From Bacteroidales bacterium (lineage in GTDB: Bacteria > Bacteroidota > Bacteroidia > Bacteroidales > F082), in contig JAILBC010000132.1 of the NCBI GenBank assembly GCA_024681295.1, forward strand, positions 12,397 to 76,396: a stretch of 64,000 nt of DNA. Direction: 5' to 3'. A program made the position numbers and the translations under genes. Shown here piece by piece: positions 4,500 through 64,000 of the stretch; position 1 is the stretch's first letter, and the number at the start of each line of letters is the position of its first letter. A model generated the notes under the pieces. That model was not told the origin of the DNA. It saw only the letters and a program-made list of their open reading frames with translations, and did not search any database.

Positions 4500-4504
4500 G
4501 GCTG

Positions 4505-31454: not shown

Positions 31455-34400
31455 ATGGCAAAGAAAATAACTATCGAAGGAAGCGATATCCTTAGCGCAC
31501 TAACCGAAGCATGGGGTGGTGTAAACAACACCGGAGCAACCGTTACCGTACACGGGACCGAAGTGCCTGCTGGTGCCGAATGGGGCATAAACCGAGGTGA
31601 AATCGAGAGATTCATCAAGGAGCAGTTTTGTCTCAAAGCCGGTGTGTTCAGGTGGTATAAGCCAAACGATGTTAACTACTACAGCCTTGTAGTGTTCGCA
31701 AAGGCGTCAGACGCTACAGCATGGGACGCAGACCACAGCTTGACAAACTACCTTCAAATCATCCAACTTCCAATCAGTACTGTAGCCACCGACTCCTACA
31801 TCTGCCGTCTCGCAGCCAACAAGAGCACGAGCAACGCCTATGTGGTGAAGAACGGCGACAGCTTTGGTGTCAATCTGCGTTACCAGTCGGTGTTTGTTGA
31901 AGGTGCGACAAGTACCTCCAGCAACTACTCGGCTGATGGTGTTATCACCATCGAGCGCAGCGTCAACGCGGGTTCGTCTTGGGTGCAGGTGGCACGATTG
32001 GGAGGGCAGACCTCACTTGATCCATCAGCAGAGACATTCCCTATCGAAATTGACCTTGGAGAATATCTTGTCGCAAGTATGAACAACCGTTTCCGCATCC
32101 GTGCTTCATTCCAGTACACTGCAGATGGTGTGACAAAGACAAGCTATTCTTCGTACATCACATTCAATGTTTCATCGGTAAACCTCGCCATGTCGATGGC
32201 GACCGATTGGGCGGTGCCGATTACCGCAAATTCATCGACATCACAGATGGCTTTGAACTTCACCCTTTACGGAGCAGTCCAGAAGTATCTGACCATCAAG
32301 GTTGACGGAACGACATTCATCGACGCAAGCCCTTACGATGCAAGTGTCAACAGCGAGCAAACTGGCAATATCGCAATCACCGACTCCACTAAGGCCATCT
32401 TCACTCACGGCGTTCACGAAGTCCAAGCCTTCCTTACCTGCTCCAACGGTTGCGGTGGTACGTTGACTTCCGACGTCATGGTCTATCACTTGATGGTGGT
32501 CAACAGCTCCACCACCGGCGCAGACCTGACACAGCCGCATCTGCTTCTTCAGGAGATTGCAACATTGGTTGACAACTTCGTCCAGTCAAGGATTTGCAAG
32601 TATGCCGTATATCACCCGGACGGCGACGATATCGACCTGTCGCTTATCATCTGCTCTTCGGCCCAAAACTACATCACGAACCCATCAACGGAGTATTTCC
32701 GTGCAGAGAAAACGGCTGAGAGCGGAGAACAGTACGACCTCAACGCCACGTTGGAAATCGAGGACCAGGCCGGCAACACTCTCAACTCGTACTTGCAGGT
32801 ATTGAGGCACGACGGCGGCACTACGACCAACTTCCTGTATGAGACAACAGGCGTCGCCTATCAGTCCATACCCGTTGACAACACCGCTGGCTATGCCCCG
32901 ACTGCTGGAACGACTTTCTACCTCAACCCGAAGCTTCGCAACAACAGCGAGGCAAACCCGGAGCGCATCCTGAACGCCGCCAATGCCAATGCCGAAGTTA
33001 CCTCCACGTGGGAACACTTCAAGCTTGGTCAGCAAGACGGATGGCTGTTGGACTCTGAGGGTAACAAGATGTTGCGTGTACCGGCTGGCTGCAACCTCGG
33101 TATCAGCCTGAATCCTTTCTCCCAATTCCTGTCAACGCCAAACAGCGGCATGACAATGGACTTCGACATCAAGGTCAGCAACGTGACCAATGAGGACGAT
33201 CCCATCCTGAGAATCTGCGAGGCCAGCGGACAGAACTTCATCGGGCTTCGCCTGAAACCAATGAGAGGAACGATGACCACGGCCTCACACACGACGGAAA
33301 GCACCAGCGACTTCTCGTGGCAAGAGGATGAACGCACCCATATCTCAATCAACATCCACAATGCGGTCGCCCCCAACAGTGCCAACGATGGCTTGACCTC
33401 GGACGGCACCACACCGACTGGAACGCTTGCCCTTGTGAGGGTGCTGATTAACGGCGTCATCAACCGCGAATTCGTGTTCTCCACCACAAGCGCCACGGAG
33501 TTCTGCACAGCAGCGCTTTCCAACGGCGGCATCATCATCGGCCAGGAGGGTGCCGACATCGACATTTACGGCATTCGTATCTGGGCGTCGCAGCAGCTAT
33601 CCGCAAGAAACGTCGTACAGAACTATATCGCCACCATCCCGTCTGCAGCAGAAAAGGAAAGAGTGAAGAAAGAAAACGACATCATCGAAAGCGGCGTTGT
33701 CAACGCAGAGAAGGTGAAGGCCCTCGGTAAGAACGTGCTTATCTGGCACGGAGCCGAGATATGGCATGGCGCATCATCCACCCAAAACGGTTGGTGGGAG
33801 TTCTACCAATATGATGCAGACGGCCAGCTTATTCCGGAACTGAGCGGCACCATAGGAAAGGCCACTGCAAGCCTGCCGTCTAAAGGCCAGGGTACGACGG
33901 CCAAGACATACTACTACTGGAACATCCAGACGAAGATCAGCGACCTCACGACGCTTATCAACGTGCCGATTGCCGACCTGCATAGCAGCATCAGCGTAAC
34001 AATGCTCACCGACGAGCAGCTCGCCGCCTACAAGGAGGACAACGAGAGCGCCTCTAAGTGGTCGAGGGCCGCATACATCAAGGGCGGCAACCTTGGGAAG
34101 AACTTCCCGCTCGCAACGGAGAGCGCACAGGTGTACGAGGTTATAGACATCGACGGAGTGGACGGCGTGAGGGTCCCCGACGGATGGATCGACGGAAACG
34201 GAAAATACAGGGGCGTCGGCTACACGATCATCAACGGCGCACCGCTGGCGCAGAAGTTCGTCCTGAAAATCAACTATGCGTCCTCGATGCAGTCGCACAT
34301 CATCGGTGTCAACAAGCTCTACAACGACCTCCACAAGATCTATTGCGGCTCGAACGCCCTGCAGGCGACAACGCCCGGAGCGGTCGTGGCCAAGCACCTC

Positions 34401-37400
34401 GAGCCGTTCCTGTTCTTCACGCAGGCCAGTGACAACGCGGCTCCCGTGTATCGGGGACCCGGCGCCTGGGGCCCCGGAAAGATGGACAAGCCGACGTGGG
34501 GTTACGTGAAGTCTGCGTTCCCAAACTTCGCCATGTTCGAGGGTGCAGACAACAACAAGGAGCTCACCGACATGCGCGTCCCGTTCGACGACGCCGTTCA
34601 TGCCGGAGACACCTATCCGAAGGTGTATTACCACCCCGAGAACGAATGCTTCATGTACCGCGTCGACTCCGGGCTCCAGCACTCGCAGAAATGCATCGAC
34701 TTCGACGGAGGAAAGACCGTTGATGTCGAAACCACGGACGGCACGCACCTCTATCCTGGCGAATACCCGCACCCGAACCTCGTGTCGTTCCTGAAGAACG
34801 CGTGGAACTTCCTGTTCCTGCACAACCCGCGCGTCAAGCCGTTCATCACCAGCGGCGGAACGCTCGGTTCGTTCAGCGACTTCGCTTCCAGCGATGCGGC
34901 ACAGGACACCGGCAACAAGTACTGGTGTTCCGACTATAAGCTGTACCGCTATGACTTCGCAGACGGCGCCTGGGTCAATGCCGGCCTGTGGAATGGCACT
35001 TCCTATGATGAGGTTAATCTCCTCGACTCTTCGGCTGAGAGCGGGACGCTGGCATACGCCACGTACACCGCATGGAACGCCCTTACGAGCAACCAGAAGG
35101 CCGACTACGAGGGTTATGTGAACAAGGCGTTTATTTCCGGTATTGTCTCTCATGCGAAAGCCAACATCGGCAACTACTTCGTGGTGAATTCATTGAAGTT
35201 CCACTATGCTTTCGAGAACCATTTCATCGCCGGAACCGACAACTGTAGTAAAAACACTTACTACGTGCTTGTCCCGACCGGCGGCAGCATGGGGGCATGG
35301 ACCGACTGGAAGTTTGAGCTTCACCAAGACGACGTAGATACCGTTCTCGCCACCGACAACAGCGGATTGCAGACCAAGCCGTACTACATCGACCGTATGC
35401 ACCCCTATGCAGAGGATGACGTGAACGAGACGGATTCGCTCTACGAAGGGACTAACAACGTCCTGTTCAACCTATGTGAGGAAATGTGGGAGGATTCGCT
35501 GGAAATCAGCGACACCCTGAGAAGCATCCTTAGTTCGATGTCTGGTCTGACAGGTGGAACTGGCAGTGCGGTAAGCGACGGCATGAACGGCATATGGAAG
35601 GCCCTCAACCGCTATATCTTCGACGTTCAGCGTTACATCCCAGCCATGGCCTTCAATGAGGCTGCTAGGATCCGTTACGAGTTCCCGAAGCTTATGAACT
35701 ACACCAGCGACCAGAGACAGGTTGACCCGATCGAGCAGTCCATGGGCGACCAACTCCAGGCAGAACTTCAATGGATGAAGCGCCGTCTGGTTTACATGGC
35801 CTCTTATGCAGCATTCGGTGAGTTCGCCCCTGCAACGACGGTGAACACCGGTATCAGCGACCTTTCTCAGTCGTTCGCCATGGTTATGGCTGCGCTGCCA
35901 AACAGCACTACTCAGACGTCGCAATACACATTCCGGCTGGTCCCTCACCAGTGGATCTATCCTACTGCGGCCATGGCCCAAAGTAGCATCAACCCGCACG
36001 TCAGGGTGGCGCCAGGTGCCGCCAACATGCCAAACGGCTACTTCGAGATTGTCTTGAGTCCTACGGCACGAAGCGATGACGGTATCACCATCTACGGCAT
36101 CAACTACTACCGAAGCATCGGCAACATCGGCAACAACTGTTTCAACCCGGCTGGCACGCTGACCCTCAACGGCAAGCGCCTGACGGAATTCAAGGCCGAG
36201 CCATCGACGTACTATTCCACCACTGTTGGCGGCAACAGTATCACCGCCGAGGCATGGCGGCAACTTTCCGACACGGAGAAAGCCAACTACCTACCTGCGT
36301 TCCGTTGCTCAGGTGTCAATGTCGGTTCCGCTACGAGAATCGCAGACCTGTCGTTCAACGGCTGCTCTTCGGTGGGTGGCAACACCATCGACATCGGAGG
36401 CTTGTCAAGGGCTGCATCCATCGACTTGCGCTATACCGACATCCTTTCCGTCGCACTGCCTCAGACACCGACGCTGACCACGCTGAAACTTCCGGCAAAG
36501 CTTACGACGCTATCCATCATGAACTGCGGCTCGTTGGAAACCGTCTCAGTGCAAGGTTTCACTTCGATGACCAGTATGACGGTCAAGGGCTGCCCCCTGC
36601 TTTCAACGGCTACCCGTGCCTTGGTGCTGAGTCTGCACGATGGAGGGGCGGCTGTCACCAACATCGAGATAGACAACATCAACTGGCAGGCGCAGACCAT
36701 CGACGGAGAAACAATGCGCTGGCTGCTTGACGTTGGCGACGCTGGATCGTGCAAGCTTTCTGGTCGAATAGAAATGGCTTCGACTTCAGCAACGCCGTCG
36801 GGCCGTCTCTACTACGATGATGTGGCGCGTCTTATCAGGCGTTACGGCAACATCTATGACTCCACTATAGCCGTCACCGACAATGCGCTGTATGTGAACT
36901 TCGCCACCACCGCCGTCACAGCGGCTATGTTGGCTATCGAAGGACGAAAGTACATCAATCCTTCGGAGTTGACCGACAAAACCATCGTAAACGGCAATAT
37001 CACCGGCGGTTACTACAACGACCTGCAGCTTTTGGTCAACGGCACCGGCAACAATGTCGCTGCTGCGCAGAAGTCCGATGGAACGTGGACCCCGAATGTC
37101 AAGTGGACCATCGAGACTACCGGCATGTCATCGTATGCCGCCATCGAGGACATCTATTCTCCTGTCATCCATGTCATCTTGGTAAGCCAGGTGACGATGG
37201 TGGTTCGTGCGACACTTACCGACATTAATGGCAATGAGCGTTACGTCGAAAAGACCATCGGTCTATGGCGCCGTGTCCCTCAGGTCGGCGACTTTGCCTG
37301 GACTGACGGTGAATTCGATAACGAGGATGATACCTCGAAAGCACTCGCAGGCTTGGTTGTCATGCGTCAGATGTACACCTCAGACAACCAACTGACAACG

Positions 37401-38474
37401 GATCCCGCTCAGGCTGCTTGGTATAAGATATGGGTGAATTCGTTCTGCGGCGGCACAAACGCCAACGCGAACAACGTCACGATGCTTTCGTCATCCGACG
37501 GACAAAGCTCTCAATACGGCGACGTATCGACGCAGTGCTGGGGAATGTATCCCGTGACAGGCGGCAGTTCCGTAGGTCTCGACGATACGAAGTCCAACAG
37601 TGTCTATGTTGACGGCTTGCTTGCTGCCATTGCCACCGCAACCGGCAGAAGCGACGTCTTTGATACTCCGTTGAGCAACCTTACTGGTGACGTATACCTG
37701 AGAAAGGATGCGGCTGCAGTGGCTGCGGCTGGCGGCGGTATCGCCATGCAGGATGACACCCAACCCGACGGGTGGGCCGTGCAGACAGCAAGTTACATGA
37801 CCAACTTCGACAGCGAAGGCGAGCGCGACAAATTGATGGCCTATGCCGATACGGTGTTGCAAGCCGTGTTGGATTACATGAATATCAGCGACGATGACCT
37901 GCCGGATGACTGTAAGGACTCTCTTGGCAACACCCATCCGCAGACTCCACAGGCCCTTGCCGACCTCACTCAGATGTTGGTCCAGTATGCTGCGGACAAT
38001 GGCGTTTCCAACCCTGCTCGTTATCGCGAGTTTATGTTCTGCGCCGCGCGTCTGTGTGATGTATGGTGCCCCGCGGACGTAAGTGCCAACATCATCAACG
38101 GCACACGCATCACGGAAGCCCAGCTTGACGACCAGTACAAACGCGGCAAGTGGATGCTCCCGTCGTCGGCGTTGCTGGCGAGGATATTCAATTTCCTCGG
38201 CAACAGTCGTTCCGGTTACAACACTTCTGCGGCACCAAGTGCGGACTACGCCAATAATAATGTGGTGGAGGCCAAACTTGCACTGTTCTCTAATGCTATT
38301 GCAAAGGGTAGGACCGTACCTGTGAGTTACAGTAGTGGCCAGTGGAGCGGTACTGAGACCAGTCGCACCTACGCCAGGCTCGTGGGCTTCACCGATGGTC
38401 TCGCCATCGCCTACTACAACAAGTACTACGGGTACGTTGTTCGGCCTGTCGCAGCATTCAAATTTGTTCCATAA
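31455..38474 (+). CDS. Giant (2339 aa) multidomain DGR target protein, putative receptor-binding tail protein with C-terminal DUF1566/C-type-lectin-fold variable domain
   Basis: The VR occupies the last ~48 codons. The C-terminus GKWMLPSSALLARIF...YGYVVRPVAAF resembles DUF1566/CLec DGR targets. Internal LamG-like, CotH-like and LRR-like segments are described in the findings. Confidence 0.9.
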   Translation: MAKKITIEGSDILSALTEAWGGVNNTGATVTVHGTEVPAGAEWGINRGEIERFIKEQFCLKAGVFRWYKPNDVNYYSLVVFAKASDATAWDADHSLTNYLQIIQLPISTVATDSYICRLAANKSTSNAYVVKNGDSFGVNLRYQSVFVEGATSTSSNYSADGVITIERSVNAGSSWVQVARLGGQTSLDPSAETFPIEIDLGEYLVASMNNRFRIRASFQYTADGVTKTSYSSYITFNVSSVNLAMSMATDWAVPITANSSTSQMALNFTLYGAVQKYLTIKVDGTTFIDASPYDASVNSEQTGNIAITDSTKAIFTHGVHEVQAFLTCSNGCGGTLTSDVMVYHLMVVNSSTTGADLTQPHLLLQEIATLVDNFVQSRICKYAVYHPDGDDIDLSLIICSSAQNYITNPSTEYFRAEKTAESGEQYDLNATLEIEDQAGNTLNSYLQVLRHDGGTTTNFLYETTGVAYQSIPVDNTAGYAPTAGTTFYLNPKLRNNSEANPERILNAANANAEVTSTWEHFKLGQQDGWLLDSEGNKMLRVPAGCNLGISLNPFSQFLSTPNSGMTMDFDIKVSNVTNEDDPILRICEASGQNFIGLRLKPMRGTMTTASHTTESTSDFSWQEDERTHISINIHNAVAPNSANDGLTSDGTTPTGTLALVRVLINGVINREFVFSTTSATEFCTAALSNGGIIIGQEGADIDIYGIRIWASQQLSARNVVQNYIATIPSAAEKERVKKENDIIESGVVNAEKVKALGKNVLIWHGAEIWHGASSTQNGWWEFYQYDADGQLIPELSGTIGKATASLPSKGQGTTAKTYYYWNIQTKISDLTTLINVPIADLHSSISVTMLTDEQLAAYKEDNESASKWSRAAYIKGGNLGKNFPLATESAQVYEVIDIDGVDGVRVPDGWIDGNGKYRGVGYTIINGAPLAQKFVLKINYASSMQSHIIGVNKLYNDLHKIYCGSNALQATTPGAVVAKHLEPFLFFTQASDNAAPVYRGPGAWGPGKMDKPTWGYVKSAFPNFAMFEGADNNKELTDMRVPFDDAVHAGDTYPKVYYHPENECFMYRVDSGLQHSQKCIDFDGGKTVDVETTDGTHLYPGEYPHPNLVSFLKNAWNFLFLHNPRVKPFITSGGTLGSFSDFASSDAAQDTGNKYWCSDYKLYRYDFADGAWVNAGLWNGTSYDEVNLLDSSAESGTLAYATYTAWNALTSNQKADYEGYVNKAFISGIVSHAKANIGNYFVVNSLKFHYAFENHFIAGTDNCSKNTYYVLVPTGGSMGAWTDWKFELHQDDVDTVLATDNSGLQTKPYYIDRMHPYAEDDVNETDSLYEGTNNVLFNLCEEMWEDSLEISDTLRSILSSMSGLTGGTGSAVSDGMNGIWKALNRYIFDVQRYIPAMAFNEAARIRYEFPKLMNYTSDQRQVDPIEQSMGDQLQAELQWMKRRLVYMASYAAFGEFAPATTVNTGISDLSQSFAMVMAALPNSTTQTSQYTFRLVPHQWIYPTAAMAQSSINPHVRVAPGAANMPNGYFEIVLSPTARSDDGITIYGINYYRSIGNIGNNCFNPAGTLTLNGKRLTEFKAEPSTYYSTTVGGNSITAEAWRQLSDTEKANYLPAFRCSGVNVGSATRIADLSFNGCSSVGGNTIDIGGLSRAASIDLRYTDILSVALPQTPTLTTLKLPAKLTTLSIMNCGSLETVSVQGFTSMTSMTVKGCPLLSTATRALVLSLHDGGAAVTNIEIDNINWQAQTIDGETMRWLLDVGDAGSCKLSGRIEMASTSATPSGRLYYDDVARLIRRYGNIYDSTIAVTDNALYVNFATTAVTAAMLAIEGRKYINPSELTDKTIVNGNITGGYYNDLQLLVNGTGNNVAAAQKSDGTWTPNVKWTIETTGMSSYAAIEDIYSPVIHVILVSQVTMVVRATLTDINGNERYVEKTIGLWRRVPQVGDFAWTDGEFDNEDDTSKALAGLVVMRQMYTSDNQLTTDPAQAAWYKIWVNSFCGGTNANANNVTMLSSSDGQSSQYGDVSTQCWGMYPVTGGSSVGLDDTKSNSVYVDGLLAAIATATGRSDVFDTPLSNLTGDVYLRKDAAAVAAAGGGIAMQDDTQPDGWAVQTASYMTNFDSEGERDKLMAYADTVLQAVLDYMNISDDDLPDDCKDSLGNTHPQTPQALADLTQMLVQYAADNGVSNPARYREFMFCAARLCDVWCPADVSANIINGTRITEAQLDDQYKRGKWMLPSSALLARIFNFLGNSRSGYNTSAAPSADYANNNVVEAKLALFSNAIAKGRTVPVSYSSGQWSGTETSRTYARLVGFTDGLAIAYYNKYYGYVVRPVAAFKFVP
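38329..38457 (+). repeat. DGR variable repeat (VR)
   Basis: 129 bp aligned to 39109-39237 at a fixed offset of 780. The 21 mismatches all fall at positions that are A in the TR. The last 26 bp are identical. Confidence 0.95.
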
Positions 38475-38481
38475 GGAACAA
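38464..38481 (+). promoter_or_regulatory. Hairpin immediately 3' of VR (candidate DGR target-recognition cruciform)
   Basis: ttgttcc-ATAA-ggaacaa: a 7-bp stem with a 4-nt loop that contains the target gene's TAA stop, 6 nt after the VR end. Confidence 0.45.
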
Positions 38482-38496
38482 GCATTTTACCTTGAC

Positions 38497-38522
38497 GGGT
38501 CGCGTCCTTAAAGACGCGGCCC
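38497..38522 (+). promoter_or_regulatory. GC-rich hairpin between target gene and avd
   Basis: gggtcgcgtc-cttaaa-gacgcggccc: a 10-bp stem (one G-T pair) with no downstream T tract. Confidence 0.4.
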
Positions 38523-38528
38523 TCTTGG

Positions 38529-39002
38529 GTGGAGAAAAAACAGAAAGTAAACAAGAAACAATTGGATATGGAAGAAGAGTTCGACGGTGTGTTCATCCCT
38601 CAGGAAGCAATAGAAGACAGCAACGCCAAGAAAAAGGTGCATCGCACGTTGCGTCAGCTTCCCATATATCGTGACATGTCGAACTTGAAAAGCATGATCG
38701 TTGACCTCTACGACATCTTGCCGAGAAAGATGACGAAGTACGCCGATACAACTTTGGGTACGGCATGTGAGGCGAAGAAATGTATCGGACTCGCTGAAGC
38801 GAGCCGGGACAGTGAGGAACGTTCCGACTACCTCAAAACTGCAAGAGTGTTTGTGGAGGATATCATCGACGATGCAACTATCCTGTTCCACAAGAAACGA
38901 ATCGACAAGAAAAAGGAAAAACAGATAAAGGATCAGGCGCGTAAGGTCGTGGCCCAATGCGTAGCATGGCGCGATTATACCAATGACCAGGGCGCGGAGT
39001 AA
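38529..39002 (+). CDS. avd: Accessory variability determinant (Avd)-like four-helix-bundle protein
   Basis: Located between target/VR and TR/RT as in canonical DGRs. Small and basic, with a helical pattern (LPIYRDMSNLKSMIVDLYDILPRKMTKY...). It uses a GTG start; an alternative ATG is at 38568. Confidence 0.6.
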   Translation: MEKKQKVNKKQLDMEEEFDGVFIPQEAIEDSNAKKKVHRTLRQLPIYRDMSNLKSMIVDLYDILPRKMTKYADTTLGTACEAKKCIGLAEASRDSEERSDYLKTARVFVEDIIDDATILFHKKRIDKKKEKQIKDQARKVVAQCVAWRDYTNDQGAE

Positions 39003-39108
39003 TTAAATATTTTTGTTATGAGCGGAGTGTCATATAATCCGATGAATGGGCGGCTTACTGCGGGACGTAAAAAGTCCTTCAGTTACGAAGGTGCAAAGCC
39101 GCAAAAAG

Positions 39109-39237
39109 ACAGTAGTAACCAGTGGAGCGGTACTGAGAACAATCGCAACAACGCCAGGAACGTGAACTTCAACAATGGTAACGCCAACAACAACAACAAC
39201 AAGTACAACGGGAACGTTGTTCGGCCTGTCGCAGCAT
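39109..39237 (+). repeat. DGR template repeat (TR)
   Basis: Adenine-rich copy of the VR containing 17 AAY (Asn) codons in the VR reading frame. It lies directly upstream of the RT domain. Confidence 0.95.
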
Positions 39238-39251
39238 CCCAAGATTATGAC

Positions 39252-40560
39252 GTGCCTGAGTCCTTTGTCAATTCCGTATGGGAAGCCTATTACGATTGTC
39301 TTAGAGGCAAGATGCGCTCGAAGCAAGCCGTGGAATACATGGAAATAGCCAACGAGGACATCCCCGTGTTGGCACAAGAATTATGGAGCGGGACTTACCA
39401 TCCTGGTACATCGACCTGCTTTCTTAGTCCACTATCCGAAACTAAGAGAGGTATTCGCGGCGAACTTTCGGGACCGCATCGTGCATCACTGGATATGCCT
39501 GCGCTTGAATCCGTTGTTCGAGGAACGCTTCGAGAAGCAAGGGAATGTGTCGTTCAACTGCCGCAAGGAGTTTGGGACGGAGAAAGCCGTGCTTCATGTA
39601 GCGGAAGGAATGAAGAGGGTGAGCGACTGCTACCACACCCCGGCATGGGTGTTCAAAGGAGATCTCGTTGGATTCTTCATGTCAATCGACAAGGATTTGC
39701 TTTGGTATCTCTTGGAACGCTTCATCCGTCGCCAGCGCAAGCGCTTCGAGCGGGAAGGATGGAAAACGCTCGACTTCTCAATTCTTGCACGCCTGAGGAT
39801 GACACAGATGCCCGAAATGTATTGGGACATCCTTATGAGAACGACAATGGTGGTTGTCATGCACCATCCGGAACTGGATTGCATACTCAACACAGACCCG
39901 AGCGAATGGCACAACCTGGCGAAAAACAAGAGCCTGTTCACATCGCCCACCGGAGAACCCATCGGAAACCTTACGACGCAGTTGTTCGCCAACTTCCTGA
40001 TGTCGTTCTTCATCAACTTTGTTCAATGGCTGTTCAGAGGAAAGAATTACTGCATGGCGCAGTTTGTGGACGATTTCGTCATTGTGTGCGACAACCTCCG
40101 CTTCCTCGTGGAAAGCATACCGAAGATAGAGGAATTCCTGCATTCCAAACTTCGCCTGACGCTCCACAAGCACAAGAGATACCTGCAACCCGTCTCTCAC
40201 GGTGTGAAGTTCGTCGGCACCTACATCAAGCCTGGCAGACTTTATCTTTCCAACCAAACGCTTTCGAGGTTGAAGGAACGTTGCCACGGGTTTGCGATCA
40301 CCATGGCAGAGAGCGAATTGGAGGATTGGGACAGGGAACGCATGGAACAGACATTCAACTCGTACCTTGGATTCACAAGGAAGAGAATGACGTACAATTA
40401 CAGGAAGGAAAACATAGAAGGAATGGGACACGACTTCTGGCGTAACTTTTACGTCCGAGGCAGCTATGAAGTAATCAGAAGAAGAAAAAACATAAAACCG
40501 AGAGACAATGAATATCTACGAACAACAGCCGCCGGTGGTGGCGACAAACAAATTGCTTGA
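39252..40560 (+). CDS. DGR reverse transcriptase, reading frame interrupted by a +1 shift at 39423-39427
   Basis: The 39018 frame gives SFVNSVWEAYYDCLRGK...YHPGTSTCFL. The +1 frame continues VHYPKLREVFAANFRDRIVHH, NCRKEFGTEKA, FKGDLVGFFMSID, PIGNLTTQLFANF and QFVDDFVIV (YxDD-type). A GTG at 39252 is a possible start. Confidence 0.85.
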
Positions 40561-40903
40561 AGGCTATGTCACGTACATCAACCTTGGAGCGAGAAAACTG
40601 ACCAAAGCCGAACGCAGGGAAAACGAAATCCCTGACAAGGTGATGGATGAAGAAGGTAACGAGGTGGCGAAACAGGCGTGGACGGCACACACCATCGTTT
40701 ACAAACACAAGGATCCTTTAACCGAAGCCGACTACGGACCTCTTGTCGCAGCAATAGTCAGAAGCCGATATTCCGCTGATGACGTTGAAGCAATCATGCT
40801 CAACTACTCAGCCGACCAGACCGAAGAGCATCGGTTGGAGTTCAACCAACTCCAGACATGGAGGCAGGTCGCGAAGGAAGCCGCGAGGGAAGCCATCGGA
40901 TAA
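40508..40903 (+). CDS. Hypothetical protein downstream of DGR RT
   Basis: 131-aa ORF overlapping the RT 3' end by 53 nt. Confidence 0.45.
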   Translation: MNIYEQQPPVVATNKLLEGYVTYINLGARKLTKAERRENEIPDKVMDEEGNEVAKQAWTAHTIVYKHKDPLTEADYGPLVAAIVRSRYSADDVEAIMLNYSADQTEEHRLEFNQLQTWRQVAKEAAREAIG

Positions 40904-48346: not shown

Positions 48347-48943
48347 ATGAACAAAGCGGACGGGCTGGGAAACAGCAGTTCGGACGTCAGGAGAAAAGGC
48401 GAATTATTCAACAAGTACATCAAGCCATACTACGACTTCATCAGGCGGCTGTGCGAACGCTACACGGCGTCGAAGCATGATGTTGACGAGAATTTCAACG
48501 ACGTCCTTTTAAACCTTTACATCTACATCGAGACATACGACGAGAGCCGCGACCTCAGGACATGGATCCACATCGTCACAAAACGGCATGTTTTCGCCCT
48601 TGACGAAAAGCGAAGAAGGCACGACAACTCAATCCAGGGAACCGAATGCGACATAGACAGGGTGCCGTCGTGCGAAATCGACAACTACGACGAATCTGAG
48701 GATTACGAGAAGATCTATGGCGACGGCATTGTTAGGACACTGCGCTCAATGCCGCAGATATACCGGCAGGCTTTCATGATGCAGCACCACGGGATGTCGC
48801 TCAAGGAAATAGCCAAGGCGCTGAAAGAGAGCGGCGACCTCAAATCCGGGAACATCAATACGGTTAAAACGAGAATCCACGTCGCAAGGAAGATTTTCAA
48901 GGAAAGCATAGACACGGAGGGAAACCTCCTCCCAAAACAATAA
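48347..48943 (+). CDS. Phage-encoded sigma-70 family (ECF-like) RNA polymerase sigma factor
   Basis: Region-2-like DLRTWIHIVTKRHVFALDEKRRR. Region-4 HTH: YRQAFMMQHHGMSLKEIAKAL...NINTVKTRIHVARKIFKE. Confidence 0.7.
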   Translation: MNKADGLGNSSSDVRRKGELFNKYIKPYYDFIRRLCERYTASKHDVDENFNDVLLNLYIYIETYDESRDLRTWIHIVTKRHVFALDEKRRRHDNSIQGTECDIDRVPSCEIDNYDESEDYEKIYGDGIVRTLRSMPQIYRQAFMMQHHGMSLKEIAKALKESGDLKSGNINTVKTRIHVARKIFKESIDTEGNLLPKQ

Positions 48944-55319: not shown

Positions 55320-55326
55320 GTGGTTG

Positions 55327-55399
55327 TGACCCGGCTGGGGCTCGAACCCAGGACCCCAACATTAAAAGTGTTGTGCTCTACCTGCTGAGCTACCGAGTC
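55327..55399 (-). tRNA. tRNA-Lys (anticodon UUU)
   Basis: Hand-folded 73-nt cloverleaf. Acceptor GACTCGG/CCGGGTC (one G-U pair); D arm GCTC-AGCAGGTA-GAGC; anticodon arm CAACA-CTTTTAA-TGTTG; T arm CTGGG-TTCGAGC-CCCAG. CCA is not encoded. Confidence 0.93.
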
Positions 55400-55419
55400 A
55401 TCCTCGCTTTTTGCGGCTG

Positions 55420-55427
55420 CAAAAGTA
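55420..55427 (-). promoter_or_regulatory. Candidate -7 promoter box (TACTTTTG) for tRNA-Lys
   Basis: The minus strand reads TACTTTTG, about 21 nt upstream of the tRNA 5' end. Confidence 0.4.
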
Positions 55428-55473
55428 CAAAACTTTTTTCATTCCGCAAGAAAATTTTTCAAAAACTTTTTCC

Positions 55474-56088
55474 TTACTCCAAAATACCCTTGCCCTGACG
55501 GACAATATAAACCTCATCCTCAGTGCAATCAACCACCGTACTTGCTACATGCTCACCGGCGCCCCCGTCGATGATGATGTCCACCAAATCCTTGTATTTC
55601 TCGTTGATCTCCTCAGGATCGGTGAAATAACGCCCCATCTCGTCGTCCTCGTCGACCAACGAAGTGGTCATGATGGGATTGCCCAGCTCTTGAACCAAGT
55701 TGGTGATGATGGGCTGGTCGGGGATACGAATGCCCACGGTCTTCTTCTTGCTCTGGAAGATGCGCGGGATGTTGTTGTTGGCGTTCAAGATGAAGGTGAA
55801 AGGCCCGGGAAGGTTGCGCTTCATCATCTTGTAGACCTCGTTGTTGATGGGACGGGTGAACTCGCTCAACATGCTGAGGTCATGGAAAATGAACGAGAAA
55901 TTGGCCTTCTCCTTCTTGATGCCCTTGATCTGGCAAATGCGCTCAAACGCCTTCTGGCTGTGGATGTTGCAGCCCATACCGTAGATGGTGTCGGTGGGGA
56001 AGATGATGGTCCCGCCATCTTGAAGACACTCCAAAATCATCTTCACGTAGCGGGGATTGGGATTGGTCGGATAAAGTTTTAAAAACAT
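55474..56088 (-). CDS. YrdC/Sua5/YciO-family L-threonylcarbamoyladenylate synthase-like protein
   Basis: 204 aa. GGTIIFPTDTIYGMGC and PGPFTFIL motifs of the YrdC domain. Confidence 0.85.
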   Translation of the reverse strand: MFLKLYPTNPNPRYVKMILECLQDGGTIIFPTDTIYGMGCNIHSQKAFERICQIKGIKKEKANFSFIFHDLSMLSEFTRPINNEVYKMMKRNLPGPFTFILNANNNIPRIFQSKKKTVGIRIPDQPIITNLVQELGNPIMTTSLVDEDDEMGRYFTDPEEINEKYKDLVDIIIDGGAGEHVASTVVDCTEDEVYIVRQGKGILE

Positions 56089-56105
56089 GTCAAAAAATTT
56101 GGCTG

Positions 56106-56131
56106 CAAAAATACAAATTTTATTAGTTTTG
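56106..56131. promoter_or_regulatory. Divergent promoter boxes (TAnnTTTG on both strands)
   Basis: Minus strand: TATTTTTG at 56106-56113, upstream of the ATG at 56088. Plus strand: TAGTTTTG at 56124-56131, upstream of the ATG at 56155. Confidence 0.4.
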
Positions 56132-56154
56132 CGCTTTCAAAATTCACTATAAAT

Positions 56155-57564
56155 ATGGGCGGCTTCTTTGGCACAATCTCAAAGCATCCTTGCATCAAGG
56201 ATCTTTTCTACGGTATTGACTATCACTCACATCTCGGCACCAAACGCGCAGGCATCGTGACACACGACGGCGAGCTCTTCCACCGTTCGATCCACGACAT
56301 CGAGAACACTTACTTTCGTACGAAATTCTGTGATGAACTCGACAAGTTCGAGGGCAATCTGGGTATCGGTGTCATCAGCGATACCGACGCACAGCCCATC
56401 ATCGTCAACTCGCACCTCGGCCAGTTTGCCATCAGCACGGTGGCCAAGATCAACAACCTCGACGAGCTAGTGCAGCATTGCCTCGACAACAAGCAGCACT
56501 TCGCCGAGTTGAGCATGGGCTTCACCAACCCCACGGAACTCGTGGCACTGCTCATCACCCAAGGCGAGGATTTCGTCGATGGCATCAAGAACGTATACAA
56601 TAAGGTGAAAGGCTCCTGCTCGATGCTGATCCTTACCAAGGATGGCATCATTGCCGCACGCGACTACTACGGTCGTACACCTATCGTGGTCGGAAAAGGG
56701 GAGGAGGGATACGTACTCGCCTCGGAGAGCCATAGCTTCATCAACCTCGACTACACCACTTGTTACAACGTGGCCCCCGGCGAGATTGTCAAGGTCACCC
56801 ACGACGGCGTCCAGCAACTGCTGGCACCCAACCCCAAGAAACAGGTGTGCTCCTTCCTCTGGATTTACTATGGTTTCCCCGCCTCCGACTATGAGGGCGT
56901 GAACGTAGAGGAGGCTCGTTACAACGAAGGCCGTGAGATGGGTAAACAGGACTATGTCGACATCGACTATGTGTCGGCTATCCCCGACTCGGGCATCGGC
57001 ATGGCACTGGGGTATTCAAATGTTCGTAAGATTCCATATTTGCGTGGCGTAGTGAAATACACTCCAACTTGGTCGAGAAGTTTCATGCCGGTCAACCAGA
57101 GCCAACGTGAGCATGTGGCCAAGATGAAACTCATCCCAAACCGTGCCTTGCTCGAAGGCAAGAAGGTGGCTTTCTGCGACGACAGCATCGTGCGTGGCAC
57201 CCAACTGCGTGACAACGTGAAGATGCTTTATGACTACGGCGCCAAGGAGGTGCACGTCCGCATCAGCTGTCCTCCGCTGCTCTTCGGATGCCCCTTCCTC
57301 AACTTCTCCGCCTCGAAGAACGTGATGGAACTCATCACCCGTCGCTGCATCGAGGAGCTGGAAGGCGACGATAACCGCAACATCGAGAAATACATCGACC
57401 AAAGCAGTCCGGAATACGCTCGTTTACTGGAGATGCTGCGCCAACACGTCGGGGTGGACTCGCTGAAGTTCAACACTTTGGACAGCGTGGTGAACGCCAT
57501 CGGGCTCCCCAAATGCGACCTCTGCACGCACTGCTTCGACGGGTCGAGCTACGGTCACGAATAA
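56155..57564 (+). CDS. purF: Amidophosphoribosyltransferase-like protein (PurF family, N-terminal Cys nucleophile absent)
   Basis: 469 aa with a class-II amidotransferase-like N-domain and the PRTase motif KKVAFCDDSIVRGTQL. The N-terminus is MGGFFG rather than MCG. Confidence 0.8.
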   Translation: MGGFFGTISKHPCIKDLFYGIDYHSHLGTKRAGIVTHDGELFHRSIHDIENTYFRTKFCDELDKFEGNLGIGVISDTDAQPIIVNSHLGQFAISTVAKINNLDELVQHCLDNKQHFAELSMGFTNPTELVALLITQGEDFVDGIKNVYNKVKGSCSMLILTKDGIIAARDYYGRTPIVVGKGEEGYVLASESHSFINLDYTTCYNVAPGEIVKVTHDGVQQLLAPNPKKQVCSFLWIYYGFPASDYEGVNVEEARYNEGREMGKQDYVDIDYVSAIPDSGIGMALGYSNVRKIPYLRGVVKYTPTWSRSFMPVNQSQREHVAKMKLIPNRALLEGKKVAFCDDSIVRGTQLRDNVKMLYDYGAKEVHVRISCPPLLFGCPFLNFSASKNVMELITRRCIEELEGDDNRNIEKYIDQSSPEYARLLEMLRQHVGVDSLKFNTLDSVVNAIGLPKCDLCTHCFDGSSYGHE

Positions 57565-57722
57565 ACTTTTTTCGGTTTTTTCTTGCCAATCCAAGAAAAG
57601 ATTGTACTTTTGCATCGGGTAAGTCTTACACGACCAGCTCCCTCTGAATTCCCCCAGGACCGGAAGGTAGCAAGGGTAGGAGGTCGTAGCGGTGCGATGT
57701 AAGTAGCTTACCCTTTTTTGTG

Positions 57723-57730
57723 TATCTTTG
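57723..57730 (+). promoter_or_regulatory. Candidate -7 promoter box (TATCTTTG)
   Basis: 18 nt upstream of the ATG at 57748. Confidence 0.4.
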
Positions 57731-57747
57731 CAAAAAATTACCGACGC

Positions 57748-58686
57748 ATGGACCTTTCGATCGTGATACCGCTGCTCAACGAGGCTGAGTCGCTTCCCGA
57801 ACTGGAAGCCTGGATTCGCCGTGTCGTGGAAAAAGAAAACTACAGCTACGAGATCGTCTTCGTTGATGACGGCTCCACCGACAACTCTTGGAAGGTGATC
57901 CAGGACCTGGCCAAGAACAATCCTAACATCCACGCGCTGCGTTTCCGCAAGAACTACGGTAAGTCGCCGGCCTTGAACGAAGGCTTCAAGATTGTGCAAG
58001 GCGACGTGGTCATCACCATGGACGCCGACCTGCAGGACAGTCCCGACGAGATTCCTGAACTTTACCGCATGATCAAGGAAGACGGCTATGACCTGGTCTC
58101 GGGCTGGAAGAAAAAACGTTACGACTCGAAGGTGATGAAGAACATTCCTTCGAAGTTCTTCAACTGGACCACCCGTTGCATGTCGGGCATCAAGCTCCAC
58201 GACTTTAACTGCGGCCTGAAGGCCTACCGTAATGAGCTGGTGAAGAGCATCCAAGTGTACGGCGAGATGCACCGTTACATCCCTGTCATCGCCAAGATGA
58301 ACGGCTTCTCCAACATCGGGGAGAAGGTGGTGCATCATCAGAAACGCCAGTACGGGAAGAGCAAGTTCGGCATGAGCCGTTTCGTTCGCGGATACCTCGA
58401 CCTGATCACCATCAACTTTATCTCGAAATTCAGCAACCGTCCCATGCATTTCTTTGGAGTGCTGGGTTCCCTGTCGTTCCTAGCTGGTTTCATCATCACC
58501 ATCTACCTGATTTGCACGAAGTATTTCGGCCACGTCTACATCTCGATGACGCGCCGTCCCTTGTTCTACTTGGGTATCCTCGCCATGATCGTGGGTGTGC
58601 AACTCTTCAGCACAGGCTTCCTCGCCGAGATGATCACCTCGACGCAGAGAGAAAAGAGGGTTTACTCCATTTCGGAAAGAATTTAG
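57748..58686 (+). CDS. Family 2 glycosyltransferase (polyprenyl-phosphate sugar transferase type) with two C-terminal TM helices
   Basis: SIVIPLLNE, VDDGSTD and DADLQD motifs. The C-terminal helices are FGVLGSLSFLAGFIITIYLI and LGILAMIVGVQLF. The start is taken at the internal ATG, 57748. Confidence 0.85.
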   Translation: MDLSIVIPLLNEAESLPELEAWIRRVVEKENYSYEIVFVDDGSTDNSWKVIQDLAKNNPNIHALRFRKNYGKSPALNEGFKIVQGDVVITMDADLQDSPDEIPELYRMIKEDGYDLVSGWKKKRYDSKVMKNIPSKFFNWTTRCMSGIKLHDFNCGLKAYRNELVKSIQVYGEMHRYIPVIAKMNGFSNIGEKVVHHQKRQYGKSKFGMSRFVRGYLDLITINFISKFSNRPMHFFGVLGSLSFLAGFIITIYLICTKYFGHVYISMTRRPLFYLGILAMIVGVQLFSTGFLAEMITSTQREKRVYSISERI

Positions 58687-58744
58687 TGGAAAGATGAAAG
58701 TGGAAAGTGGAAAACTTTCAACTCTCCACTTTCCACTTTCCACT
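58686..58744. terminator. Bidirectional hairpin built from GTGGAAA heptamer repeats between convergent genes
   Basis: Four tandem G(T/A)TGAAA/GTGGAAA units (58686-58713) face three TTTCCAC-type units (58723-58743). The arms 58700-58713 and 58730-58743 are perfectly complementary. Confidence 0.5.
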
Positions 58745-59187
58745 TAATAAAGGTCATCAATATTCCCGTCGTAGCTGTCGCCGCCGAAGGAGTCACCGAA
58801 TTCGTCTCCGAACTCGTCGAATTCGTTTTCATCAAATTCATCCTCAAACTCGTCAAAGGGGCTGTCGTCAGGGATGTCGGCATTGTCCCAGTCGAAGTCA
58901 TCGTCCAGCTTGTTCTCGTCGAAGTCATCGCCTTGGTCCATCTGGTGCATGAACTCCGCTATTTCGTCATCGCTCATCTTGTCGAAGTCGCGGTCGAGTA
59001 GGGCGGAGTCGCTAATGGCACGACCCAGCGATTTCAGATCACGTTTCAACGAAGGAGAGACGTAAAACTCATCGATATTCTCCTCACAATATTTTATGTA
59101 TTTGGGGTCTTTCTCGTAGACTTCAGCGATCGTCTGTCCTTCGTACTTACCGAACGTGAAGACGTCATCAAGATCATAGAATTTCAT
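58744..59187 (-). CDS. Hypothetical protein with extremely acidic C-terminal tail
   Basis: From the internal Met at 59187: MKFYDLDDVFTFGKYEGQTIAEVYEKDPKYIKYC..., then a DDFDWDNADIPDDSPFDEFEDEFDENEFDEFGDEF tail. Confidence 0.55.
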   Translation of the reverse strand: MKFYDLDDVFTFGKYEGQTIAEVYEKDPKYIKYCEENIDEFYVSPSLKRDLKSLGRAISDSALLDRDFDKMSDDEIAEFMHQMDQGDDFDENKLDDDFDWDNADIPDDSPFDEFEDEFDENEFDEFGDEFGDSFGGDSYDGNIDDLY

Positions 59188-59207
59188 AATGCCTGATAAA
59201 TTTGGCG

Positions 59208-59235
59208 CAAAGATAGTTGTTTTTTTATATTTTTG
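59208..59235. promoter_or_regulatory. Divergent promoter boxes (TAnnTTTG on both strands)
   Basis: Minus strand: TATCTTTG at 59208-59215. Plus strand: TATTTTTG at 59228-59235. Each lies ~17-21 nt from its ATG. Confidence 0.4.
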
Positions 59236-59251
59236 CTTAAAAATTTGAAAA

Positions 59252-59845
59252 ATGAAAATAGACTTTGAAGAAATTGAGGATGGCATGAGAGACGTCATCA
59301 AAGAATCGATCGCAATCAAGCAAAACCTTTTATCAGACGAGGATCTTCTAGACAGGCTTCATAGGGCCATCGTAGTGTGTGCTGATTCGTTGGAAAAAGG
59401 TGGTAAAATCTGGTTTGCCGGCAATGGCGGAAGCGCTGCCGATGCACAGCACTTGGCCGCCGAACTCAGTGGTCGCTTCTACCTTGATCGTAAATCCATA
59501 CCCGCCGAGGCACTCCATACCAATACCAGTTTCCTTACCGCTGTGGCTAATGACTATGGTTACAATATGGTCTATTCACGATTGCTCGAAGGTTGCGGTC
59601 GCACTGGCGACGTGCTAGTGGCTATCAGCACCTCGGGCAACTCGCGTAACGTGGTGGAGGCAGCCAAACTTGCTCAAGCCATGGGAATATACGTCATCGC
59701 CTTCACCGGTGCAACGGGAGGAGCACTCGGTAGATGTTGCAATGTGCTGCTCAATGTGCCGAGCAACGACACACCTCGCATTCAGGAATGCCATATTATG
59801 TTGGGTCACATTCTTTGTGAAAACATCGAAAAGATACTTTTTTAA
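59252..59845 (+). CDS. gmhA: D-sedoheptulose-7-phosphate isomerase (SIS domain)
   Basis: GNGGSAADAQHLAAEL and ISTSGNSRNV motifs. 197 aa. Confidence 0.85.
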   Translation: MKIDFEEIEDGMRDVIKESIAIKQNLLSDEDLLDRLHRAIVVCADSLEKGGKIWFAGNGGSAADAQHLAAELSGRFYLDRKSIPAEALHTNTSFLTAVANDYGYNMVYSRLLEGCGRTGDVLVAISTSGNSRNVVEAAKLAQAMGIYVIAFTGATGGALGRCCNVLLNVPSNDTPRIQECHIMLGHILCENIEKILF

Positions 59846-60387
59846 TGAAGCCCGACTGGAGACAATACATCAGCGATGACTGGACGCTGTTCCTCGACCG
59901 CGACGGCGTCATCAACCGCCGTATCATCGACGGCTATGTCACCTCATGGGATGAATTCGAGTTTCTTCCTGGCGTGTTGGAGGCCCTTGAGATACTGGCA
60001 CAGCGCTTCAGATACATCATCGTTGTCACCAACCAACAAGGCGTAGGGAAGGGGCTGATGACCATGGAGCAGGTCGATGACATCCACGACCGAATGTGCA
60101 CCGAGATCGAAGCCCATGGCGGTCGCATCGACGGCATCCTGGTCTGTCCCCAGTTGGCCTCCGAGCCTGACAACTACCGAAAACCCGACCCATCCATGGC
60201 TTATACCGCCCAAGAGATTTATCCCGAAATCGACATGGAGAAATGTGTCATGGTCGGCGACGGTGCCACGGACATTGAATTTGGCCGCAATGCTGGCACC
60301 AGAACCATTTTCATCGGCGATGAGAATCCCGATGCCGATGACTGTTTCTCCTCTTTAATTGAATTTGCCAATTGTTTGAAACTATGA
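59845..60387 (+). CDS. gmhB: D-glycero-D-manno-heptose 1,7-bisphosphate phosphatase (HAD-IIIA)
   Basis: FLDRDGVIN (DxD), VVTNQQGVGKG, YRKPDPSM and MVGDGATD motifs. Translationally coupled to gmhA. Confidence 0.8.
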   Translation: MKPDWRQYISDDWTLFLDRDGVINRRIIDGYVTSWDEFEFLPGVLEALEILAQRFRYIIVVTNQQGVGKGLMTMEQVDDIHDRMCTEIEAHGGRIDGILVCPQLASEPDNYRKPDPSMAYTAQEIYPEIDMEKCVMVGDGATDIEFGRNAGTRTIFIGDENPDADDCFSSLIEFANCLKL

Positions 60388-61853: not shown

Positions 61854-61946
61854 TGTGTCTTCGACACACAGTTTGCGATTAGTCATCTTCCCCCACACTA
61901 CGCTTCGCTTGTGTGGGGTTATTGAGGTTGCGCCTCTTCGAGGCGC

Positions 61947-63005: not shown

Positions 63006-63038
63006 AAGGTCCTCCTGAGGTTTTTTCAATTTCGGCTT

Positions 63039-63067
63039 CAAAAATAATAAAAAAATTCCTAGTTTTG
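63039..63067. promoter_or_regulatory. Divergent promoter boxes (TAnnTTTG on both strands)
   Basis: Minus strand: TATTTTTG at 63039-63046. Plus strand: TAGTTTTG at 63060-63067, upstream of the kdsA ATG at 63083. Confidence 0.4.
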
Positions 63068-63082
63068 CAAAAAAATATTGGA

Positions 63083-63868: not shown

Positions 63869-63902
63869 CTTCTTACTTCTGTCTTCTAACTTCTTTAAAA
63901 AC

Positions 63903-64000
63903 ATGTTTTTAGTCTTCGATACCGAGACCACCGGTCTCCCTAAACAATATAACGCACCGCTCACCGACTTCGACAACTGGCCACGTCTGGTGCAACTGGC
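63903..64000 (+). CDS. DnaQ-like 3'-5' exonuclease, N-terminal fragment (runs off window)
   Basis: MFLVFDTETTGLP is the Exo I (DxE) motif. Confidence 0.6.
   Translation, partial: MFLVFDTETTGLPKQYNAPLTDFDNWPRLVQL

Follow-up and report, generated by a model that had tools for sequence, protein, structure and literature searches.

A conserved frame break and a stop-free overlapping frame in the reverse transcriptase gene of a diversity-generating retroelement from a Bacteroidales prophage

How can a diversity-generating retroelement (DGR) produce its reverse transcriptase (RT) when the RT gene is divided between two reading frames? The question is raised by a locus in a stretch of 64,000 nucleotides (nt) of DNA from a Bacteroidales bacterium (GenBank assembly GCA_024681295.1, contig JAILBC010000132.1, positions 12,397 to 76,396), hereafter the window, whose coordinates are used throughout and in which features lie on the plus strand unless stated otherwise. 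In this locus, frame 0 runs from an ATG at 39018 through the template repeat (TR) and the RT N-terminus, while the RT core is found in frame +1 from 39424, the junction being TGC_TTT_C (39417-39423). Because the gene is divided between two frames, synthesis of the RT would require recoding. Comparison of the window with related loci suggests, with a probability of about 0.8, that the RT is expressed via translational recoding at the break, and the bypass is inferred to be ribosomal.

That the locus is a DGR is close to certain. The original prediction, made from the letters of the window, had paired a variable repeat (VR, 38329-38457) with a TR (39109-39237), and realignment reproduces this pair of 129-nt repeats exactly, including the boundaries (T/G at 38328/39108 and T/C at 38458/39238). 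The alignment is gap-free at an offset of 780 nt and shows 21 mismatches, with A as the TR base in 21/21; the VR carries T at eight of these positions, G at seven and C at six, and 21 of the 47 TR adenines are altered. Translation of the TR in the target frame gives SSNQWSGTENNRNNARNVNFNNGNANNNNNKYNGN, with 17 asparagine (Asn, AAY) codons, 16 of which are altered in the VR, in agreement with the earlier count. Because the 82 non-A positions of the TR, matched on both strands of the 64-kb window, fit only at the VR and TR places, the window holds a single VR.

The RT, likewise predicted to be of DGR type, contains the motifs IGNLTTQ and FVDD, the former (motif 4) being an I-G-x-x-x-[ST]-Q variant of the DGR signature. 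Among solved structures, the joined RT of 435 amino acids (aa) best matches the Bordetella RT bRT (8ub7_A, E 1.7e-23), a group II maturase (6me0) reaching only 3e-4, and the bRT alignment runs unbroken across the frame junction. The RT also matches Pfam RVT_1 and PHROG 1423, scores far under the cut-offs of the NCBIfam group II (62 bits, cut-off 300), retron and Drt3a models and, in tblastn searches against deposited phages, is closest to the RTs of Bacteroides phages, with Bordetella phage records also among the matches. The clade call rests on these structure and profile scores, on tblastn and on the motif rather than on a reference-clade phylogeny. Neither substitutions at non-adenine TR positions nor an RT of the group II intron or retron type, both named beforehand as contrary evidence, was found in the window.

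The architecture of the RT gene departs from what was first proposed. A single RT open reading frame (ORF) at 39252-40560 does not stand, as this span is 1309 nt long, which is not a multiple of 3, and crosses a +1 break at 39420-39424. A frame-0 ORF of 475 aa (39018-40445) holds the TR and the RT N-terminus. After the TR, frame 0 reads QDYDVPESF...ELWSGTYHPGTSTCF, and the N-terminal segment of the RT within it (39238-39422, QDYDVPESF...GTSTCF) aligns to bRT residues 18-60. The core follows in frame +1 (39424-40560, 378 codons and a stop), reading LVHYPKLREVFAANFRDRIVHHW... via FVDD to the stop at 40560, and carries IGNLTTQ and FVDD together with the RVT_1, PHROG 1423 and bRT matches. The full-length trans-frame RT would have 513 aa, with the predicted junction between ...GTSTCF and LVHYPK... 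(peptide ...GTYHPGTSTCFLVHYPK). The canonical gene order that had been described, target with VR, Avd-like gene, TR and RT, is indeed present; however, the TR lies in frame inside the RT's own ORF, so that the layout is not fully canonical.

In all lineages, a conserved ATG is found about 30 codons 5′ of the TR, just past the avd stop, and the lineage comparison revealed no conserved start between the TR and the bRT-homologous N-terminus. Homologous RT ORFs are 480-520 aa long, TR included. The leader from this ATG to the TR start (39018-39108) is more conserved at the nucleotide level than the coding sequence past the TR, its variable columns show no third-position bias (15/10/12 of 33 by codon position, versus 24/17/49 past the TR) and its indels are all in frame. 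Hence the leader appears to be under RNA- or DNA-level constraint with its frame maintained, and it may both be translated and belong to the DGR template RNA.

The break is not confined to the window. Related loci or contigs are designated here by L-numbers, and are called shifted when they carry the break and unshifted when they do not. The closest database protein, P0001 (92% identical), is a shortened call of 369 aa found on three contigs from three samples, all with the site ACCTGCTTTCTTAGTCCA. Alternative-frame translation and a degenerate slip-site pattern uncovered further shifted loci, namely L007, L008/L009 (an 87-kb contig, 94-96% identical to the window), L010-12/L104/L142, L013/14, L113, L116 and L121. 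The site is identical in the window, L002-4, L007, L008/9, L113, L116 and L121, with variant sites in L010-12/L104 and L013/14. The break is thus present in at least five diverged lineages and more than 10 assemblies, built independently from short reads, at 13-25% nucleotide divergence. RT identity among shifted lineages goes down to 81%, a depth similar to that separating them from the nearest unshifted loci (L005, L006 and L016), to which identity is 79-81%. Unshifted loci read TGY TTC CTN GTC CAC at the junction, whereas shifted loci read TGC TTT C, then TTA, TTG or CTC, then GTY CAC.

Frame-broken RTs were found in none of 80 loci of the RT family from species-representative genomes and none of 80 from IMG/VR, so the shifted clade appears narrow. 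A scan for the slip motif gave two matches in IMG/VR and 47 in metagenomes, only six of which are true RT loci. Scanning IMG/VR for close relatives yielded a single distant locus, and megablast of the DGR region against deposited phages gave no match.

Both parts of the RT gene are constrained, each in its own frame. In the comparison of the window with L002 by the Nei-Gojobori method, the 62 frame-0 codons before the site give a synonymous divergence (dS) of 1.09, a nonsynonymous divergence (dN) of 0.042 and a ratio (omega) of 0.038, and the 377 frame +1 codons after the site give dS 0.92, dN 0.043 and omega 0.047. The same segments read in the wrong frames give omega values of 1.8-4.7. The first 18 codons past the break contain 8 synonymous and 0 nonsynonymous changes. 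In addition, the +1 frame of the window lacks ATG, GTG and TTG codons upstream of 39481; the GTG that gene callers take as the start in L002 corresponds to GTA in the window and to GTC in L007. Because both frames are constrained and a +1 start is lacking, a pseudogene or an internal start is very unlikely, and translation would have to cross the junction.

The repeats of the shifted loci bear on whether the element functioned after the break arose. In four shifted lineages, 76 of 77 TR/VR mismatches lie at TR adenines, and the VRs of relatives differ from one another. In 18/18 alignment columns in which the TRs differ between lineages, the cognate VR is in the same state; among these mirrored changes, L002 contributes AG to TC and T to C, L010 contributes ten substitutions, and a 3-nt AAC indel sets the window apart from the closely related L008 and others. 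Because each VR mirrors its own TR, TR information was copied to VRs after the split of these lineages, all of which bear the break. This pattern indicates that the DGR stayed active within the shifted clade.

Two departures from the usual state of the repeats were observed. The sole exception among the 77 mismatches is found at L002:830 / 1593, where the TR has G and the VR has A. In L013 (509-640) and L014, which belong to the P0125 lineage and come from two samples, the TR slot 5′ of the RT holds the diversified, VR-like DSSYQWSSTEGYRTYARYVNFTSGTAGSYNKYSGY and not an Asn-rich template. Both contigs stop short of the VR, and it looks as if mutagenised complementary DNA (cDNA) homed into the TR itself.

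The position of the putative slip is suggested by the substitutions surrounding the break. The site TGC_TTT_C, followed by TTA in the window (39417-39426), is invariant in shifted lineages, and only TGC TTT C is so: synonymous sites vary on either side, and the next codon of the RT frame varies synonymously (TTA, TTG, CTC). L010 (TTT CTT GGT TCA) and L013 (TTT CCT CGT CCA) show three differences, none of which changes the amino acid (Leu, Val) if decoding resumes directly after UUC, whereas a slip one codon later would turn the difference into Leu-to-Pro. A slip from UUU to UUC is favoured because these differences are synonymous only in that case. In such an event, tRNA-Phe would re-pair from UUU (39420-39422) to UUC (39421-39423), and decoding would resume at UUA (39424-39426). 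On this basis, the slip probably occurs specifically at UUU_C.

In bacteria, UUU_Ynn is described as especially prone to +1 frameshifting, with no stop codon required, and reported +1 examples include Yersinia YopN-TyeA and the influenza A PA-X cassette UCC_UUU_CGU (Atkins et al., PMC5009743). The site in the window resembles such UUU_Y sites in its invariant UUU and pyrimidine, in the perfect match of the +1 codon UUC to tRNA-Phe (GAA) and in needing no downstream stop. It differs in that no rare A-site codon or stimulator is evident, and in that the shift is obligatory for the enzyme core instead of giving a minor fusion. A Ty1-like slip at CUU_AGU_C was the first idea considered, and was downgraded in view of L013 (TTT CCT CGT) and of the synonymous pattern favouring UUU_C. 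The CUU_AGU_C of the window does resemble the Ty1 heptamer CUU_AGG_C, and a CUU-to-UUA slip gives the same protein. However, unlike the situation in Ty1 or prfB (CUU_UGA_C), AGU is not rare here (7.6 per 1000), and L013 (UUU_CCU_CGU) lacks the CUU.

Past the slip site, frame 0 continues as a stop-free frame of 340 codons (39423-40445) overlapping the RT core. No stops are found in frame 0 over 311-348 codons in six shifted lineages, and the frame is open for 321-348 codons in four further assemblies. When the RT core was shuffled among synonymous codons, 12-23 stops were expected and 0/3000 shuffles attained the observed open length. By comparison, the equivalent frame is interrupted by 13 stops in the unshifted L005, beginning at codon 32, and by 12 in the unshifted L006, beginning at codon 16. 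Counted across 310 codons, the stops of shifted lineages number 0 in frame 0 and 11-21 in the other alternative frame, against 8-14 in the equivalent frame and 12-15 in the other frame of five unshifted relatives. The frame-0 ORF ends at 40445 in the window and, across lineages, 39-156 nt before the ATG of the next gene.

Such openness could mean that the 475-aa frame-0 protein is a functional second product, comparable to Gag beside Gag-Pol or OrfA beside OrfAB, which would comprise the TR-encoded peptide, the RT N-terminus and a basic tail of 340 aa. Two proteins made from one start by frameshifting are common in mobile elements (PMC5009743), the frame is open in every shifted lineage and its product is consistently basic (pI 8.7-9.9). 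However, the aa identity of frame 0 between shifted lineages is 44-52% (at 73-76% nucleotide identity), which matches the 44% of the untranslated frame in the unshifted pair L005/L006 at equal nucleotide divergence (74%). Moreover, the overlap hardly reduces the synonymous divergence of the RT (dS 0.92 vs 1.09), and the product has no family or phage match. A conserved frame-0 protein was rejected on the identity comparisons, and a functional second product is regarded as unlikely. Because frame 0 is stop-free and yet no more conserved in aa sequence than in unshifted pairs, selection appears to act on openness and not on a product. A premature frame-0 stop would leave 1.1 kb of the late structural operon untranslated, with the risk of Rho-type polarity and of lost translational coupling to downstream tail genes, and it is tentatively suggested, at less than even odds, that frame 0 is kept open to avert these effects.

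The break itself invites other explanations. Single-base indels beside short homopolymers do arise in assemblies, but a sequencing or assembly error in the window would not recur in independent short-read assemblies of more than 10 samples from lineages 13-25% diverged, nor would it leave frame 0 stop-free only in shifted lineages, and its likelihood is negligible. Seen in one genome alone, a frame break would usually be taken to mark the RT as a pseudogene, with a DGR that is dead or relies on another RT in trans and an A-only VR/TR pattern that persists as a fossil. The VRs shared by contigs of one lineage from different samples would agree with this, as would the diversified TR slot of L013/L014, a copy that may be disabled. 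Yet both RT halves have an omega of about 0.04 at a dS of about 1, no extra indels or stops have accrued in five lineages, lineage-specific TR changes, the 3-nt indel included, were copied into cognate VRs within the shifted clade, and neither a second RT nor a second VR was seen in the window; a decayed RT is hence most improbable. Alternatively, the RT could assemble from two polypeptides without frameshifting, a frame-0 N-terminal part and an internally initiated +1 C-terminal fragment. Split enzymes do exist, and gene callers give a 369-aa product from the GTG in L002. Since this GTG is not conserved, since no +1 start lies between the upstream stop and 39481 even though the codons from 39424 are strictly constrained, and since the junction falls inside the segment that aligns contiguously to bRT, the two-part enzyme is very unlikely.

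Translational recoding at UUU_C, the favoured explanation, has several points to its disadvantage. Both the trans-frame protein and the low efficiency of the shift are predictions from sequence. No stimulatory element and no conserved flanking nucleotide pattern were found, and the surrounding synonymous sites vary freely; RNAalifold, applied to the TR 3′ end and 200 nt in 18 lineages, gave a consensus energy of about 0 with 4 pairs and no conserved structure. The zero-frame codon past UUU (CUU or CCU) is not rare, CUU being the commonest Leu codon in the phage. In the window lineage alone, a CUU_A slip yields the same protein and is a possible alternative, since some unshifted relatives read TGC TTT CTT GTC. 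The same VR often recurs on contigs that belong to one lineage but come from different samples, so activity at present is putative. The polarity or coupling rationale for the open frame is a proposal, and a C-type lectin fold of the target would rest on weak, sub-threshold Lcl_C matches and on the conserved C-terminal scaffold. Because no stimulator was found, the efficiency of the slip would be low, and an inefficient slip may act as a throttle on RT dosage.

A more complete proposal, put forward with reserve and judged rather less probable than its negation, is that the RT of this clade is expressed only via an unstimulated, low-efficiency UUU_C slip, while the 340-codon, sequence-neutral frame 0 has evolved in compensation as a conveyor that carries most ribosomes, those that do not shift, across the RT gene and so preserves transcription and translational coupling of the tail genes downstream. 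Under the favoured explanation, which is considered likely, the TR-containing RNA (39109-39237) would be reverse-transcribed with adenine-specific errors, and the cDNA would replace the VR (38329-38457), probably guided by the identical 3′ segment of the repeats and a downstream hairpin. The 513-aa RT would be made only upon a +1 slip at TGC_TTT_C, a need caused by one extra base, and non-slipping ribosomes would stay in frame 0, stop-free until about 60 nt before the next gene.

The 3′ segment in question, ACGTTGTTCGGCCTGTCGCAGCAT (24 nt, 38434-38457), is a candidate homing element similar to the initiation of mutagenic homing (IMH) sequence and is identical in VR and TR, with zero mismatches beyond 38433. 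When this segment changes in a lineage (T to C in L002, C to A in L010), the change appears in both the TR and the VR of that lineage. Six nt past the VR, DNA folding predicts a candidate target-recognition hairpin, TTTGTTCC-ATAA-GGAACAAG (38463-38482), which spans the stop codon of the target. Its stem is preserved by compensatory changes in L002 (GTTTGTGC/GCACAAGC) and in L010/L011 (TGTGCC/GGCACA), and a simple scan also scored it as terminator-like. By likeness to the Bordetella phage BPP-1, the 3′ segment and the post-VR hairpin may serve as homing signals. A second GC-rich hairpin, GGGTCGCGTC-CTTAAA-GACGCGGCCC (38497-38522), is predicted by DNA folding between the target gene and avd; it shows a compensatory T:A to C:G change in L010 and is not followed by a T-run. 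This hairpin could be a Bacteroidales-type terminator or attenuator, or else the 5′ boundary of the DGR RNA. The DNA fold of 38434-38530 has a z-score of -3.1. An Rfam scan found no RNA families in the DGR region, and a tRNA-Lys and a signal recognition particle (SRP) RNA elsewhere in the window.

The target gene (31455-38474) encodes a giant tail-module protein of 2339 aa with the VR at its extreme C-terminus, within the final 49 codons, and matches PHROG 24896, a family without an assigned function. Target homologs retain the C-terminal scaffold W..TE..R..AR.V.F..G....KY...VVRPVAAF, with hypervariability in the columns templated by Asn codons. When translated, the TR gives matches to Lcl_C (PF07603) that all fall under the Pfam cut-off, with an E of 8e-4 for the window and of 1e-6 to 2e-5 for homologs. 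Searches of the target C-terminus against Pfam, NCBIfam and PDB sequences returned nothing usable, and an AlphaFold2 (AF2) model of the C-terminal 280 aa, built on a 15-sequence alignment, had a pLDDT of 42 and was unusable. From the position of the target, the DGR would diversify receptor binding. Several long antisense ORFs lie inside the target gene (32685-36263, minus strand), the largest of 459 aa (33774-35153), and are probably compositional artefacts.

Targets may also be exchanged between related elements. L010 and L011 have the same RT and TR (the alternative-frame protein P0123 is identical) and different targets. In L010 (2141-9397), the VR terminates a protein of 2418 aa; in L011 (20-436), a differently diversified VR terminates a 138-aa gene with a different upstream sequence (GGDELNEDDAYWCSTE...). 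This difference suggests target swapping or truncation.

The Avd-like gene (38568-39002) encodes 144 aa from an ATG at 38568, in an ORF open from a GTG at 38529; the 144-aa gene of relatives starts with MEEEF or MDEEF. The original prediction of a small helical accessory protein agrees with a single-sequence AF2 model, a helical bundle of modest pLDDT (64). In Foldseek searches of the PDB, this model is matched best by two four-helix-bundle structures, 2gsc and 2rld (E 4e-4 to 2e-3), and more weakly by Bordetella Avd (4dwl and the Avd chains of 8ub7; E 0.06-0.3). No sequence-level match was found in Pfam, NCBIfam or PDB sequences. As modelled, the accessory protein would fit the four-helix-bundle family, and Avd itself more weakly.

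Downstream of the RT, a conserved gene of 131 aa (40508-40903) is present in all of the relatives examined, among them L002, L005, L007, L008, L010 and L013. The 131/132-aa product has no Pfam or PHROG match and might be a further DGR or tail accessory. The phage BS-TP1, discussed below, carries a DUF4376 protein at the same position. The RT stop overlaps the ATG of this next gene by 4 nt in the unshifted L005 and in the shifted L007. The position of the RT stop is unstable in shifted lineages (40443-40560 in the window): relative to the overlapping stop of L005 and L007, it is displaced downstream by about 50 nt in both the window and L002 and by about 140 nt in L008. The RT frame of L010 and L013 extends by about 150 codons, out of frame, over the entire downstream 132-aa gene.

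As originally predicted, gene annotation places the cassette among the baseplate and fibre genes of a prophage. Portal, prohead protease, sheath, tape measure, baseplate hub and fibre-like genes are found upstream, and Baseplate_J-like genes, a sigma-70-like gene and the terminase large subunit gene (TerL) downstream. The right end of the window is host DNA, with a tRNA-Lys (55326-55399, minus strand), a Bacteroidales small SRP RNA (57610-57717, 110 bits) and the housekeeping genes GT2, SIS, HAD, SSF transporter and DAHP_synth_1-family (KdsA-like), of which GT2, SIS, HAD and the KdsA-like gene point to LPS or sugar metabolism. The presence of phage tail genes together with host DNA bearing a Bacteroidales SRP RNA points to a contractile-tailed prophage of a Bacteroidales bacterium. 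The prophage-host junction region (55326-64000) includes a GATase-like gene between the tRNA-Lys and the SRP RNA, and no integrase was identified in the window stretches scanned. The phage also encodes an RtcB-type tRNA ligase (3312-4604, minus strand) and a sigma-70-like factor with regions 2 and 4 (48347-48943, plus strand); a tRNA ligase is also mentioned for Quimbyvirus by Benler et al. (PMC8008677).

Known systems provide a frame for these observations. The brt gene of BPP-1 consists of a single ORF and is separated from avd by the TR and a non-coding spacer. The window resembles BPP-1 (mtd-VR, avd, TR, brt) in gene order, in A-only differences, in a VR at the C-terminus of a tail protein and in an RT homologous to bRT. 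It is also similar in having an identical 3′ repeat segment followed by a hairpin, and in an accessory fold that matches Avd, if weakly (4dwl, E 0.06-0.3). Unlike in BPP-1, the RT ORF of the window includes the TR in frame, a search for a conserved spacer structure was negative, the RT would need a +1 frameshift, and the target, with 2339 aa, compares with a much smaller Mtd.

The nearest deposited phage is BS-TP1 of Bacteroides salyersiae (PQ571274), with 55% identity in TerL and 46% in the RT. Its module is syntenic with that of the window, comprising an unannotated target of 2187 aa (gp27), a four-helix-bundle protein (gp26), an RT and baseplate genes, and its RT ORF, of 493 aa, also extends upstream. 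In contrast to the window, the BS-TP1 RT is an uninterrupted single ORF, with neither a frame break nor an open overlapping frame reported. DGRs with targets of about 2000 aa have been described for cultured temperate phages of Bacteroidaceae, and gp27 is reported as the BS-TP1 target (PMC12694917). The DGR of the window is itself an ordinary member of the kind already described.

The closest precedent for a split RT is Quimbyvirus ('Quimbyviridae'), a gut Bacteroides phage whose DGR RT is found in overlapping ORFs, for which two programmed frameshifts were suggested (Benler et al. 2021, PMC8008677). The Quimbyvirus RT was argued to be active from adenine-specific VR variation, and its target lies in the tail-fibre region (PMC8008677). 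Compared by description, the window is similar in having three overlapping ORFs in three frames (39018-40445, 39481-40560 and 40508-40903), but the third of these is the separate 131-aa gene. In addition, PMC8008677 gives no slip site, selection analysis or stop-free frame, and TerL is near Vequintavirinae/Ounavirinae in Quimbyvirus and near BS-TP1 here. Frameshifted RTs are unmentioned in a large DGR survey (PMC5758913) and in a recent Bacteroides DGR study. Hence a frameshifted DGR RT was already suggested for Quimbyvirus, and the apparent novelty lies in the definition of a slip site, the evidence of selection, the TR-to-VR transfer in the shifted clade and the zero frame free of stops.

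To our knowledge, DGRs are the only natural system of targeted protein hypermutation, and the limits on RT dosage are poorly understood. The locus supplies a defined, conserved recoding site in a DGR RT together with comparative evidence of function after the break arose, by which the passing suggestion made for Quimbyvirus becomes a testable mechanism. It also has consequences for annotation: gene callers have rendered such RTs as products of 369 aa and 466-479 aa, DGR finders too would miscall them as truncated or as two ORFs, and a broken RT should not by itself lead to a DGR being scored as inactive. The stop-free, sequence-neutral zero frame is unusual and suggests that the avoidance of early termination in a phage late operon can shape a 1-kb overlap. 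If the proposed conveyor frame and inefficient slip were true, they would represent a new kind of constraint on overlapping frames, that of openness alone, and a built-in dosage throttle on a hypermutation enzyme.

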